Of a stretch of 64,000 nt of DNA, positions 47,697 to 51,292 are shown piece by piece (the stretch's first letter is position 1; each line of letters starts with the position of its first letter). Source of the stretch: a bacterium (GTDB taxonomy: Bacteria; SAR324; JACQKK01); assembly GCA_965240465.1 (NCBI GenBank), contig OZ251219.1, positions 1,152,001 to 1,216,000 of the forward strand. The letters run 5' to 3'. The position numbers were made by a program, and so were the translations under genes. The notes under the pieces are model-generated. The model saw only the letters and a program-made list of their open reading frames with translations, ran no database searches and was not told where the DNA came from.

Positions 47697-47800
47697 TCAG
47701 CTCGCCTACATTAAGCTCTACCACTACCTCTATTTTGTATTAAAAGCATGGGGCTGTCTAGTTTTGTTTATGGAGCAGAATCTACTAGGCACTTAGTAAA

Positions 47801-47829
47801 TTGACAATCAGGCGTTTTAAGGGTATATT
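47801..47829 (+). promoter_or_regulatory. sigma70-type promoter of the membrane protein/ImmA cassette
   Basis: TTGACA-17 bp-TATATT; a second TTGACA at 47856. Confidence 0.65.
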
Positions 47830-47940
47830 TGGGGAAGTCCCCCCACAAATCGGTCTTGACATATCTCAGCATTGTATTATAGAAAGGGGGGCAAAGCTTC
47901 TTATAGGAGTTCTAAGAAATGGTTATGGTAGGCGGTAAAA

Positions 47941-48435
47941 ATGAAATGGTGGGAATTAGTGTTGACGCTGGTGCGGGCTTTTGGTTGGGTGTTGGGTATA
48001 GGTGCTATATTTTTTCTTGCTCCCTTATATACAAGATATGTTTCCTTGTATTTAACACCAAAAGGAACGTTTGATGATAATGTTGCTTCCACGCTTTCAG
48101 TTCAACTTGCTATGCTCCAGCTGGGTCTGACAGCATTTGGGATCAGCATAGCAGTTTTAGCCATTTTTGGTTTTAAGATCATAAAAGAGGAGGCTGTTAA
48201 AGTAGCAGAAGAGAAGGCTGATGAAGTGGCAGAAAAGAAGGCTGGTAAAGTGGCAGAAAAGAAGGCTGGTAAAGTGGCAGAAAAGAAGGCTGATAAAGTA
48301 GCAAAAGAAGTAGCTGGTAAAGTAGCAAAAGAAGTAGCTGGTAAAGTAGCAAAAGAAGTAGCTGGTAAAGTGGCAAAAGAAGTAAGAGCATCAACGCAGT
48401 TTAAAGACTATTCTGACGACGATATACCTTTTTAA
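47941..48435 (+). CDS. Two-TM membrane protein with charged helical repeats and SSB-like C-terminal DDDIPF
   Basis: Two hydrophobic segments, (KVAEKKAG)/(KVAKEVAG) 24-bp repeats, ends DYSDDDIPF. Confidence 0.75.
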   Translation: MKWWELVLTLVRAFGWVLGIGAIFFLAPLYTRYVSLYLTPKGTFDDNVASTLSVQLAMLQLGLTAFGISIAVLAIFGFKIIKEEAVKVAEEKADEVAEKKAGKVAEKKAGKVAEKKADKVAKEVAGKVAKEVAGKVAKEVAGKVAKEVRASTQFKDYSDDDIPF

Positions 48436-48475
48436 TAAAATTATTGCAGAACAAATTTTTAGTGAGAACAGTGAA

Positions 48476-49111
48476 ATGGTAATGTCACATAAAGAAGCTT
48501 TTGGTATTATAGAGAAATATCACCGAGAAAACTCCTACCCGCCAGTAGATGTGGTAGAACTTGCAAGAAGGTTTGGGGTCAAGGAAATTAATAAATTCAG
48601 TGGTGCAGGTGCAATAGACCCCGAAAGTTTATCTAGTATTATAGATTCTATTAAGATAACGCTTAATCAAATGGAGGCAAAGTATAAAAGTAATAGAGTA
48701 TCAGGATATGTTCGTAGAGTTGACAAAGATAACGAGAATGAAGGGTATATTATTGGGGTAAATCAAGATGATGCAAAAGTAAGACAACGCTTTAGCATAT
48801 CCCATGAAATTGCCCACATTGTTCTACATAGTGCTCTTATTGGTGATGGGATAAAGGATATGATTAATAAAAAAATTGGTTCTGATGATAGTAAAAATGG
48901 TGTGGATAAAAATGAAGAAAATTACTCCCTATACAGAAGTGGTTTGTCTAACTCTGTGGAGACCAGTGCAAATGATCTCGCGGCTAGAATCTTAATGCCA
49001 TTAAAATTTATTGAAGAGGCGATAAAAAGTGGCGTGAAAGATATACCAGCTCTGGCAGAATTGTTTGGGGTTTCTGAGCAGGCTATGACAATAAGAGTAA
49101 AAAAACTTTAG
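48476..49111 (+). CDS. ImmA/IrrE-family Zn metallo-endopeptidase
   Basis: PPVDVVELA, RQRFSISHEIAH (HExxH), ETSANDLAARILMP, LAELFGVSEQAM. Confidence 0.92.
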   Translation: MVMSHKEAFGIIEKYHRENSYPPVDVVELARRFGVKEINKFSGAGAIDPESLSSIIDSIKITLNQMEAKYKSNRVSGYVRRVDKDNENEGYIIGVNQDDAKVRQRFSISHEIAHIVLHSALIGDGIKDMINKKIGSDDSKNGVDKNEENYSLYRSGLSNSVETSANDLAARILMPLKFIEEAIKSGVKDIPALAELFGVSEQAMTIRVKKL

Positions 49112-49228
49112 GAATTTTAATCCCGCCCCGATGTCAACAACTCTCCCCTGAGTGATCCCTTTGCAATGGGCTTCCTATCGGGAGGCGGGGGGCGGGGGGT
49201 GTTGCTATTTAAGATAGGCGGGGGTGTG

Positions 49229-51292
49229 CTATCTAAGATAGGCAGCGTTGGTTTTCAGGGTTTGGTTGAGCATCTGCAGGAATTCCGCGGGTGTGGATAC
49301 TACTCCTGCATGCCTCCAGAGGATGGTGTTATCGGGGGATAGGATGACGTAGTAGGGCAGGGCGATGGTTTGAAAGCGTTGGAGTTGGAGTTCTTGGTTG
49401 GGTATTTGGTAGGGGCCGCCATCGGTATAGAGTTTTGCGAGGGCGAATTTTTCTTTGAAGGTTTGATGGATTTCAGGGTGTGAGAAGATTCGTGCTTCCA
49501 TCCAGCGACAGTTGATGCAGGTATAGCCAGTGAAGTCCACAAAGACAGGTTTTTTCTGGCGGCGAGCTTGTTGTAGTGCTAGGGCGAGGGTTTCGTTCCA
49601 GGGCAGATTGTGGGAGGAGAGCTGATTGATGGATCTAAATTGACGAGCTTGTTTTCGGTCAGGGTTTATTTTTGTTGCCAGCGAGGCGGAATTATCAAAG
49701 GGAGGGAGATAGGCTTCCACATAGGAGTTGAGAATATATCCGTTGGCACCCAAGACAAAATAAGCAGCCAGCCCCGCAAAACCAGCCGCAAATAGCAGTC
49801 GCAGCTTAGATAAAGACAAGTGCCGCCCAATAAAGGGCAAAGGCGGAAACCCAATAAGAATCACGACAGCTATTCCCGTCAGGACGCTCCACATTATCAG
49901 CAAGTTAGAACGAGTGAGCAATCCCCAGCCCCAAATGAGGTCGGCATTACTGATGAACTTTAAGGCAGCCATGAGTTCAACTAAGCCCAAAATGGATTTG
50001 AATAAGGTCATCCAAGCTCCGCCCTTTCCTTGCATGAGGCCCAACAGGCGCGGCGACATGGAAATCAGTACAAACGGTAATGCAAATACAGCCGAATAAG
50101 TAAGCATTCCGATGAGCGGCCAGAAAGTCTGCCCCTGAGTAGCCGCCAGTAGTAGAGTCCCCACAAATGGCGCGGTGCAAGTAAAAGAAGTTATCGCAAA
50201 TGCCATCCCCATAAGAATAATCCCCCCCGTACCCTTGATGTTCTGCGACCATCGCACAAAACGATTGATGAAATTGTTGGGTAGCGAAAAATTAAAAAGT
50301 CCCAGTAAAGAAAATCCAAATAAAATAAACAAACACCCAATCACCAAATTAACCAGCGGATGAGACGCAAAACGCAAAATGCCAGTAGCTCCAAACAGAA
50401 CAGTAGCTCCAAAACCCAAGGAGGTAATGCTGAATACAATTCCCAAACCAAAAACTAGCACTAATTTTAATCTGACCCGAGTAGGATTCTCCGATTCCAC
50501 GCCATCAGACCGCAAAAAGAAAGATACCGTGATGGGAATCAAAGGAAATACACAGGGCGTCAACAAGGCGAATAATCCAAAACTGGCAGCCAACAGAAGA
50601 AACTTCCACACTCCGCTAAATAAAATTGCCTGCATGTTATCAGGACTAGCATGTAAGCGTCCTTGCTTGTCAATAAGGTCTACACTCCGCTCCATGTAAG
50701 CCTGAGCAGGACGCACCTCACCCGCAGACAGATTCACAATAGCTAACAGTTCTCTGGAAATAGGTCGGGTGCAATATTCATCGCTGCAAACCTGCCAATT
50801 TATTCTCAAAGGAATGCTCGTAGGACCATAAGACGGCACGTCCTGGGGTACTTGAAAATTTTGGTAAAACCGAGCCGTGTTCTTATGTAGTGCCAAAGGA
50901 ATTGCAAAAGCAGGATCCTCCTCTAACAAGGGATTGGTCTCATATGCCTCCCCTAGCACTCTCATGCTGGTATCGCTGACAATTAACTTGCTCGGCGGCG
51001 GAGCAAAACGGCTCTCAGAGGGTATCAAAGAGTAAATATGCCAGCCGCGCACAATGTTCACGGTAACCAATACCCGAAAATGCTCACCAGGATGAACTTC
51101 CCTCGGCTCGGTGGAGGTCGTAAAATGAACCAACTTACTAGGAAGAACCTGACGCGGATTCTGTAACCCCACCCCCTCAGCACCACGAAAATCCGCCTCC
51201 TTACCCAAACCCGCCCTAGGTAAAACCAAAAATCCCAACAAGGCTAGCATCAGCAACCGAGAACCAACCTGATTGCTGTGCTTAAACTTCAT
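49229..51292 (-). CDS. dsbD: Thiol:disulfide interchange protein DsbD family
   Basis: GWHIYS, QVCSDEYC, LTPCVFPLIP, FTCTAP, VDFTGYTCINCRWME. Confidence 0.92.
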   Translation of the reverse strand: MKFKHSNQVGSRLLMLALLGFLVLPRAGLGKEADFRGAEGVGLQNPRQVLPSKLVHFTTSTEPREVHPGEHFRVLVTVNIVRGWHIYSLIPSESRFAPPPSKLIVSDTSMRVLGEAYETNPLLEEDPAFAIPLALHKNTARFYQNFQVPQDVPSYGPTSIPLRINWQVCSDEYCTRPISRELLAIVNLSAGEVRPAQAYMERSVDLIDKQGRLHASPDNMQAILFSGVWKFLLLAASFGLFALLTPCVFPLIPITVSFFLRSDGVESENPTRVRLKLVLVFGLGIVFSITSLGFGATVLFGATGILRFASHPLVNLVIGCLFILFGFSLLGLFNFSLPNNFINRFVRWSQNIKGTGGIILMGMAFAITSFTCTAPFVGTLLLAATQGQTFWPLIGMLTYSAVFALPFVLISMSPRLLGLMQGKGGAWMTLFKSILGLVELMAALKFISNADLIWGWGLLTRSNLLIMWSVLTGIAVVILIGFPPLPFIGRHLSLSKLRLLFAAGFAGLAAYFVLGANGYILNSYVEAYLPPFDNSASLATKINPDRKQARQFRSINQLSSHNLPWNETLALALQQARRQKKPVFVDFTGYTCINCRWMEARIFSHPEIHQTFKEKFALAKLYTDGGPYQIPNQELQLQRFQTIALPYYVILSPDNTILWRHAGVVSTPAEFLQMLNQTLKTNAAYLR

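Follow-up and report, generated by a model that had tools for sequence, protein, structure and literature searches.

A linked membrane protein and M78 peptidase in a SAR324 genome: a candidate toxin-antitoxin-like module with an SSB-like C-terminal tip

Introduction

Why would a small membrane protein end in the same six residues as SSB, its host's single-stranded DNA-binding protein? The question is raised by a two-gene cassette in the genome of a SAR324 bacterium (GTDB lineage Bacteria; SAR324; JACQKK01; NCBI GenBank assembly GCA_965240465.1), within a stretch of 64,000 nucleotides of contig OZ251219.1 (positions 1,152,001 to 1,216,000 of the forward strand) that we analyzed as a whole and refer to as the window. 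Gene 1 of the cassette encodes a protein with two transmembrane (TM) helices that terminates in DDDIPF, and gene 2, which starts 40 nt past the end of gene 1, encodes a peptidase of the M78 (ImmA/IrrE) family. Hexapeptides of the DDDIPF type form the SSB C-terminal tip (SSB-Ct) (PMC5872125). An original prediction, made from the nucleotide sequence of the window, had proposed that the pair is a possibly undescribed defense or stress-signaling module in which gene 1 acts as a membrane-tethered decoy of the SSB tip.

Here, we show that the gene pair is conserved and linked in genomes and metagenomes, that the tip is peculiar to the copy in the window, and that related loci connect the pair with known abortive-infection systems. 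With moderate confidence, we read the cassette as a minimal two-gene member of that group.

Results

The membrane protein gene and the peptidase gene are linked in many lineages

A scan of genome contigs with an alignment of the peptidase yielded 334 confirmed relatives among 600 pattern matches, and the best 80 were analyzed. We defined a pair as an open reading frame (ORF) of the gene 1 family whose end is separated from the peptidase start by a gap of -40 to +60 nt. Such an ORF lay directly upstream of the peptidase in 54 of these 80 loci, frequently overlapping it; two loci ran into a contig end, 23 had no such ORF, and one had no peptidase ORF. The hidden Markov model behind this count was built from 38 of those same upstream ORFs. 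As an independent check, gene 1 alone, used as a phmmer query against a 55-sequence database, matched 35 of the 54 (E ≤ 4.3e-4). Independent metagenome loci gave 39 dyads in 80, the others being contig-end cuts (8), other arrangements (29) or loci without a complete peptidase ORF (4). The dyad shares are lower bounds, because some of the loci with other arrangements still have hydrophobic upstream ORFs that fall outside the criteria. The peptidase loci were drawn from Alpha- and Gammaproteobacteria, Acidobacteriota, Brachyspira, Chlamydiae, Bdellovibrio-like bacteria, and other lineages. These counts support a gene pair that is real, conserved, and linked, in line with the expectation of the original prediction that gene 1 homologs would be found beside ImmA/IrrE genes elsewhere.

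In word-based searches, both proteins appear to be nearly orphan. A profile of the two-TM (2TM) family, run against a library clustered at 50% identity, recovered 2561 representatives at E ≤ 1e-3, of which 811 were at E ≤ 1e-10, and the part that is conserved across the family is TM2 together with the juxtamembrane helix. Judged by this profile, the family is large, and it is nameless in the four libraries searched (Pfam, NCBIfam, PADLOC, and PHROG).

Within the phylum, a six-frame search of 88 genomes found a relative of gene 1 (E 1.8e-10) in genome G064, a 2.4-Mb member of the same class. In G064, the gene for a 161-aa M78 peptidase comes after that for a KEVA-repeat 2TM protein of 137 aa. 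The peptidase subfamily is patchily distributed, with 8 of the 88 genomes positive at E ≤ 1e-10 and none found in the same-genus genome G001. G064 carries six copies of the subfamily (L207, L215 [=L012], L216, L217, L218, and L219), four of them with a 2TM partner, and one of its peptidases has an in-frame TAA. A search of viral contigs with the peptidase alignment found 19 loci, and among the 13 examined, a clear 2TM partner was present only in L111 and a weak one in L113.

Some related loci also encode TIM-B

A subset of the related loci is longer than a dyad. A gene for Beta_protein (PF14350, 2e-41) of ∼358 aa follows the peptidase in 24 of 81 related loci, and the PADLOC "beta" scores of these downstream genes range from 2e-36 to 1e-47. 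Seven loci also have a convergent PADLOC "cll" gene (5e-36), and an IS1595 transposase lies beside seven loci. The related peptidases match PD-Lambda-2_B, and their Beta proteins match PD-Lambda-2_C. Three- and four-gene forms in the order 2TM protein, M78 peptidase, Beta_protein, with a convergent cII-like gene, were seen in L051, L054, L058, L067, L074, L089, L092, L100, and others. We also observed that the tails of the 2TM proteins track the subtype, with FDPxDxGER and EEWRD accompanying TIM-B and VTELTEEEKGE occurring in its absence.

Such loci resemble TIM-B systems, which a preprint of October 2026 describes as consisting of an effector, an optional metallopeptidase, and TIM-B (10.64898/2026.10.19.760177). 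The effectors listed there include Gop (a predicted 2TM, membrane-permeabilizing protein), "2TM-B," HigB, RES, caspase, and others, and the preprint unites gop-beta-cII and PD-lambda-2-type loci under the TIM-B name (10.64898/2026.10.19.760177). The immune or toxin-antitoxin-like context that the original prediction had suggested is therefore backed by P4-beta/TIM-B and cII linkage in a subset of loci. TIM-B is absent from the window cassette, from the G064 copies, and from the peptidases nearest to gene 2. Because the TIM-B gene is missing in the window, we treat the cassette as a minimal two-gene form. PF14350 had no match anywhere in the host genome in a search that was silent in control genomes too.

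Gene 2 is an M78 catalytic core

Over residues 81-208, gene 2 matches Peptidase_M78 (PF06114) with E 5.8e-17 and a score of 62.1 bits, the family cut-off being 22. The top PADLOC match was capP (7.3e-20), with RmrA models next, and the capP alignment covers only profile positions 29-150 of 242, the C-terminal part being absent. A profile made from 48 relatives found IrrE (3dte, 8.1e-13) and CapP (7t5t, 1.6e-11) in the PDB, as well as an IrrE orthologue (8slm) and a helix-turn-helix (HTH)-peptidase (9vzy). The PDB alignments likewise cover the core (residues 79-176 of 301 in IrrE and residues 63-176 of 291 in CapP 7t5t). An alignment of 48 sequences shows no variation at E111, H114, H118, E162, and A165 and almost none at H110 and N166. 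Gene 2 has the downstream Glu motif (E162-x-x-A165-N166) as well as the HEIAH motif, both intact, and we take the residues of these two motifs to be its metal and catalytic residues. Based on these matches, gene 2 is an ImmA/IrrE/CapP-type catalytic core without an HTH or sensor domain. It is the sole M78 gene in the host genome. The protein has no predicted membrane segment and would reside in the cytoplasm, as would the tail of gene 1. No Xre/HTH gene was present among the islet or flanking ORFs, and the HExxH ImmA/IrrE peptidase without an Xre repressor nearby, as originally predicted, is confirmed both by the family, capP, and PDB matches and by these HTH-free flanks.

Gene 1 is a predicted helical hairpin with a long stalk and a disordered tail

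The AlphaFold2 model of gene 1, built from a 40-sequence alignment, is all-helical (predicted local distance difference test [pLDDT] score of 85), with helices at residues 2-38 and 47-152 that are separated by a short loop. The stalk of ∼75 residues extends TM2 as one helix, and residues 153-164 at its end are unstructured (block pLDDT 58 and 51). Tandem Repeats Finder resolved the stalk repeat as period 24, with 8.3 copies and 90% matches, seven copies being in register. Averaged over 40 family members, the 15 residues that precede TM1 hold 2.0 K+R residues, the loop holds 1.2, and the 20 residues that follow TM2 hold 3.3. From this distribution, the positive-inside rule predicts that both termini, and with them the tail, are cytoplasmic. 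The two TM helices, the repeat-expanded charged stalk, and the DYSDDDIPF end that had been read from the translation all held up, and the tail is predicted to be both cytoplasmic and disordered.

Gene 1 had no meaningful match in Pfam, NCBIfam, PADLOC, or PHROG, including no OB (oligonucleotide/oligosaccharide-binding) fold (no PF00436 match) and no other DNA-handling domain in Pfam. Its look-alikes in the ESM Atlas belong to unnamed clusters only (scores of 0.89-0.90). A word-based homologue search with gene 1 gave three weak matches (P0002-P0004, E 1e-4 to 2e-3). These are proteins of 231-261 aa with a disordered N terminus, two TM helices, and repeats of the AEKVA/AEKAEEVA type, so that their stalk architecture is like that of gene 1; their C termini are GDDE or KWP and lack the SSB tip. 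A 65-aa leucine-rich ORF antisense to the stalk repeat (48197..48394, minus strand) is almost certainly a repeat artifact.

The tip is identical to that of the host SSB and peculiar to this copy

The sequence DYSDDDIPF is followed directly by the stop codon of gene 1, i.e., the tip is a free C terminus. The host SSB ends in DPYVDDDIPF, and seven of its last eight residues are the same as those of gene 1 (Y-x-DDDIPF). The aromatic residue at position -8 is common to SSBs of the phylum. The resemblance to the SSB tip on which the original prediction was built is therefore exact. Of the 10421 stop-to-stop ORFs of ≥50 aa in the host genome, 2 contain DDDIPF, namely SSB and gene 1, and in both it stands at the extreme C terminus, which is more than chance would suggest. 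A back-translated DDDIPF-stop search of the 88 phylum genomes returned five matches, of which four are SSBs (in G000, G001, G008, and G082) and the fifth is gene 1; the match in G001 falls on the 3' end of the SSB hit in that genome. The third base differs between gene 1 and the resident ssb at all six tip codons, and recent copying of the tip from that gene is thereby ruled out; the tip codons match the AT-rich usage of the islet. Next to the host ssb, we noted long overlapping ORFs of proline-rich repeats (L001, 1835..2451, plus strand; PLPTSLHPSCQPLLPLLQPSAPY...), which are either a gene or a DNA repeat.

As a check of the assembly, we used Logan contigs. The stretch is contained in two runs only, both of the same sample, which may be the assembly's own source, and no RNA run was listed as containing it. 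The contigs span 48342-49191 and 48342-49250 with zero differences, reproducing the tail and the peptidase gene, and the tail is therefore not specific to this assembly. The repeat region is split into short contigs, so the repeat number is known from this assembly alone.

We compared the ends of 234 unique relatives, made up of 149 representatives, the metagenome dyads, and 46 distinct ORFs from genome loci (G064 among them). Not one of the 234 has PF at its end, and four have a terminal aromatic residue. In the nearest relative, that of G064, the terminal residues are NDEIIY. Homologues thus lack the acidic-IPF end whose conservation had been proposed as a check, and for this reason "SSB-tip decoy" does not describe the kind of module to which the pair belongs; the tip belongs to this one copy. 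What the family does share is acidity: D and E make up 33% of the final six residues, and in the 149 representatives the final 20 residues have an average net charge of -2.8. Subfamily tails hold motifs such as ELEExFDPxDxGER, EEWRD, and DYGxAAG, and the tails of the four G064 paralogues all differ from one another, two being basic. We considered a shared "acidic plus terminal aromatic" motif and rejected it, since the frequency of aromatics is 0.023 in the last six residues versus 0.037 upstream and only 4 of the 234 are terminal. At family tail composition, the chance of a DDDIPF end is 7e-8 per protein, or 2e-4 over the 2561 representatives, and a chance origin of the tip appears unlikely on these figures.

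The SSB tip recurs on viral proteins

Docking on the SSB tip depends on its terminal carboxylate and its Phe, and it requires a free, disordered C terminus. We put the likelihood that the gene 1 tip binds SSB-tip clients at a little under even. It is raised by the free, disordered, and predicted-cytoplasmic C terminus, by the extension of the match to the aromatic at -8, and by the behavior of the tip as a portable motif in mobile elements. Potential clients include RecO, which binds the SSB tip in E. coli and is encoded in the host genome. The Chi subunit (PF04364) was not found there by a search that detected the family only in two proteobacterial controls.

Viral contigs contain at least 119 loci with DDDIPF-TAA, comprising 117 ORFs of ≥40 aa (L220-L338). 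We scanned 79 of these ORFs with Pfam (78 with full flanks plus L311). SSB accounted for 21, DUF669 and Pam3_Gp34 for two each, and a DnaB_C helicase fragment for one; 52 had no family, and the remaining ORF matched UPF0547 below the cut-off. Examples of viral tip ORFs without an SSB assignment are L282:2-718:+, L227:704-1420:-, and L272:221-718:+, and small families of ∼75-85 aa recur. Some of the family-less ORFs may be divergent single-stranded-DNA-binding proteins. One 68-aa viral ORF (L311:304-507:-) has one hydrophobic segment and the acidic end EEDDDIPF. It is the only one of the ORFs examined in which a hydrophobic segment and the tip are combined, and it may be a second membrane-associated SSB tip.

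Taken together, it looks as though phages have widely borrowed the SSB tip, and imitation of the SSB tail would then be frequent among mobile elements. A host-side bait is made plausible by this apparent frequency, DDDIPF being the end of many non-SSB viral ORFs. The tip has also been noted on prophage DUF669 proteins (PMC13687109, 2026). Our literature search, which did not extend to preprint supplements, found no report of a membrane-anchored SSB tip, and on non-SSB mimics it turned up only that DUF669 remark.

The cassette lies in an AT-rich islet among housekeeping genes

The features of the cassette are collected in Table 1. Its G+C content is 0.33-0.41 across 47.75-49.1 kb, compared with 0.44-0.52 on either side and 45.4% for the genome. 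The islet is set between the genes for a TPR protein and DsbD, the latter directly downstream of gene 2 and convergent with it; a Mur ligase, PrsW, and enolase are also encoded nearby. A scan of the region for promoter-like sites gave 10, versus 3.5 ± 1.8 in shuffles, with the site upstream of gene 1 ranking best, and the same regional scan gave no terminator-like site. The AT-rich cassette that had been proposed is thus recovered in the drop of G+C content, and its putative TTGACA-17-TATATT promoter as a match to the consensus. A 45-aa ORF that begins at 47801 had no family match.

Table 1. Positions in the window of the cassette, its two genes, and their parts
Feature	Position in window	Strand	Basis or description
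Two-gene cassette islet, AT-rich	47700..49115	.	GC profile; flanked by housekeeping genes
Promoter-like TTGACA-17-TATATT	47801-47829	+	11/12 consensus positions; consensus match alone
Gene 1	47941..48435	+	164 aa, C terminus FKDYSDDDIPF
Transmembrane helical hairpin, residues 1-77	47941..48171	+	AlphaFold2 helices; predicted N-in/C-in
K/E/A/V helical stalk, repeat-expanded	48183..48382	+	24-nt (8-aa) tandem repeat, about 8 copies
SSB C-terminal tip DDDIPF	48415..48432	+	End of disordered residues 153-164
Gene 2	48476..49111	+	211 aa, M78 peptidase ORF
Zinc-binding/catalytic motif HEIAH, residues 110-114	48803-48817	+	Sequence

The cassette stretch has no DNA match across 20 relatives, and in the same-genus genome G001 the two flanks of the islet lie ∼680 kb apart. 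These observations, together with the AT-rich composition and the housekeeping surroundings, point to a small self-contained unit that was probably acquired horizontally. No convincing direct repeats or att-like duplication flank the islet. The cassette and the 3' end of the DsbD gene are separated by a G-rich 24-nt direct repeat in two copies (window positions 49196-49243), which overlaps the DsbD stop codon; the copies are 83% alike, and each has a short palindrome. The start contexts of the two genes are alike (47916-47950 and 48467-48484; GAAATGGTxATG / TGAAATGGT), which may reflect a common translation-initiation region or be the trace of a duplication.

Discussion

A proposed mechanism for the cassette

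We consider it somewhat more probable than its contrary that the cassette is a TIM-B-less, two-gene toxin-antitoxin-like or abortive-infection module whose tip, with a lower probability, links it to the SSB interactome. Based on gene position and on analogy, we infer that the 2TM protein is the effector and the peptidase its switch. Gene 1 would form a two-helix hairpin in the inner membrane, extended into the cytoplasm by a long helical stalk that ends in a flexible tail, and would permeabilize the membrane in a manner analogous to that of Gop of phage P4. The cytoplasmic peptidase would either trim the stalk or tail to release this activity or restrain the effector. The tip could plug the module into the SSB interactome by serving as a tethered bait for host, phage, or plasmid proteins that bind SSB tips, and the stalk of ∼75 residues would hold this bait roughly 10 nm off the membrane. 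Binding to the bait might then shield the tail from the peptidase or expose it, gating the protease or the effector and thereby coupling invasion or DNA damage to membrane permeabilization.

A more specific proposal is that the tip, held out on a rigid stalk, senses the hijacking of genome maintenance, with SSB-docking recombinases, helicases, and nucleases of phages or plasmids gating M78 cleavage and, through it, permeabilization. We regard this as doubtful; if true, it would amount to decoy-based immunity on a short linear motif, with the variable tails of the family as interchangeable "bait" peptides.

Several observations weigh against the two-gene abortive-infection reading or against parts of it. 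The 234 relatives all do without the tip, so the module functions in its absence, and the acidity of family tails raises the odds of a chance DDD run. At average composition, ∼0.25 chance DDDIPF ends would be expected among ∼15 million proteins, a rough estimate for a scan of ∼250,000 windows. No recognizable 2TM partner is present in 23 of 80 genome loci and 29 of 80 metagenome loci. The window copy and its nearest relatives lack TIM-B, and the rules of TIM-B systems may therefore not transfer to it. The gene 1 family is only possibly the same as the "2TM-B" of the preprint, which is distinct from Gop. It has no detectable sequence relation to Gop itself (hhalign probability of 0.3%; no PADLOC match). 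Finally, in PD-lambda-2, it is the M78-bearing protein rather than the upstream gene that is toxic alone (PMC9519451). A prediction of the complex between the peptidase and gene 1 residues 76-164 scored 0.00, with controls not run, and counts neither way.

Alternative explanations

The module could be as described and the tip a neutral coincidence, in which case the cassette would act like its relatives and have no link to SSB partners. We hold this to be possible but not probable. The absence of the tip from all 234 relatives favors it, as do the acidic composition of family tails (33% D/E in the last six residues) and the choice of this case post hoc from a very large scan. In the four paralogous pairs of G064, no tail is related to another and two are basic, and on that account the tail would seem poorly constrained. 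The conserved subfamily motifs (e.g., ELEExFDPxDxGER) argue the other way, in that tails that hold such motifs are not mere junk. Coincidence also sits poorly with the figure of 7e-8 per protein at family tail composition, with the reach of the match to the Y at -8 of the host SSB, and with the lack of any second non-SSB DDDIPF end in the 88 genomes. Moreover, the tip stands exactly where SSB-Ct function needs it, at the free C terminus of a disordered segment. The main rival to the assignment of effector and switch is the reverse polarity, with a toxic M78 peptidase that cleaves essential host or phage proteins and a 2TM protein that serves as its membrane-anchored antitoxin or sequestering partner. 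The analogy here is again PD-lambda-2, in which protein B is toxic alone and is rescued by the upstream gene A (PMC9519451), and the 2TM gene precedes the peptidase gene, frequently with translational coupling of the two, in the order usual for an antitoxin. The TIM-B preprint, too, permits the metallopeptidase "as an alternative effector" (10.64898/2026.10.19.760177). However, known toxins (HigB, RES, and Gop) take the position upstream of the metallopeptidase in TIM-B operons (10.64898/2026.10.19.760177), and P4 Gop, which has the same architecture, is reported to be the toxic partner in its locus (PMC9122126). The many subfamily peptidases that have no upstream partner are also awkward for an unguarded toxin, and we judge the reverse polarity to be unlikely.

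There are two further possibilities. In an ImmA/IrrE-type switch, the peptidase would cleave an unlinked Xre-type repressor upon DNA damage, and the 2TM protein would modulate or localize it. Gene 2 does resemble IrrE, CapP, and ImmA-type peptidases, and an SSB tip would suit a link to DNA damage. Nonetheless, the partner that is conserved over 93 loci is the 2TM protein and not a repressor, there is no HTH gene in the islet or its flanks, and gene 2 is a catalytic core with no sensor domain, which makes such a switch improbable. The least probable of the explanations, to the point of being nearly discounted, is a remnant of a phage lysis or superinfection-exclusion locus, made up of a holin-like 2TM protein with a charged tail and an accessory protease. 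The architecture of gene 1 is like that of class II holins, Phage_holin_3_6 has weak, sub-threshold matches in three relatives (E 1e-3 to 0.035) and SieB in one, and one clear pair lies on a viral contig (L111). Every holin or SieB match, though, is below the Pfam cut-offs, no lysin or other phage gene is nearby, M78 peptidases are not muralytic, and a 2TM partner was seen in just one or two of the 13 viral peptidase loci examined out of 19 found.

Significance

This work defines the gene 1 family and its tight pairing with an HTH-less M78 peptidase. The two-gene abortive-infection reading would extend the gop-beta-cII/PD-lambda-2/TIM-B group to a minimal form that current defense finders would miss. 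The peptidase family and TIM-B-type systems were already known. Of the earlier suggestion that the module was undescribed, one part fails, since operons of a 2TM effector, a metallopeptidase, and TIM-B are in the 2026 preprint, and another part stands, as we did not find the TIM-B-less dyad described as such in the accessible literature. In that literature, the TIM-B preprint was the only source on 2TM proteins paired with ImmA/IrrE peptidases to turn up. If the tip is functional, gene 1 would provide the first example of an SSB docking peptide anchored in a membrane, and the cassette would be a natural experiment showing effector tails to be swappable recognition motifs.

Comparison with known systems

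Like SSB, gene 1 has an exact DDDIPF at a free, disordered C terminus; unlike SSB, it is membrane-anchored and has no OB fold. Gene 2 shares the M78 catalytic core with the peptidases of the ImmR/ImmA, DdrO/IrrE, and CapH/CapP pairs but has neither an HTH substrate gene nor a C-terminal sensor domain. In further contrast to these repressor-protease pairs, the window has no regulated immune operon or mobile element near the cassette (no CapH HTH partner and no operon of the cyclic-oligonucleotide-based antiphage signaling system [CBASS] type was found in its flanks), and the conserved neighbor of the peptidase is a membrane protein. The work on Brucella ZnMP (PMC7379133) deals with the classical Xre-plus-M78 pair, which is a different one from that described here.

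PD-lambda-2 of E. coli consists of a HigB-like gene, an Xre-M78 fusion, and a P4-beta-like gene, the third of which is needed for defense (PMC9519451). The related three-gene loci have the same order of a small toxin-like gene, an M78 gene, and a P4-beta-like gene. The differences are that its upstream gene is HigB-like, not 2TM, and its peptidase is Xre-fused, whereas the window has no HTH and no third gene. In the gop-beta-cII locus of P4, which reportedly protects against lambda and P1, Gop is reported to be toxic without beta (PMC9122126), and an accessory phage gene is reported to act as the trigger of the locus (10.1101/2023.04.06.535777). A peptidase gene is lacking in P4, as are beta and cII in the window. 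Nevertheless, Gop (133 aa) combines a pair of hydrophobic helices with a charged helical segment and a polar tail, as gene 1 does, it is first in its operon with later genes regulating it, and loci related to gene 1 hold beta and cII homologues.

With respect to TIM-B systems, the window cassette, the G064 copies, and their nearest relatives stand apart in lacking TIM-B, and the preprint's section on these systems mentions no SSB tip. The cassette and these systems are alike in the small 2TM protein encoded upstream of a metallopeptidase, and the related three-gene loci fit the description given in the preprint.

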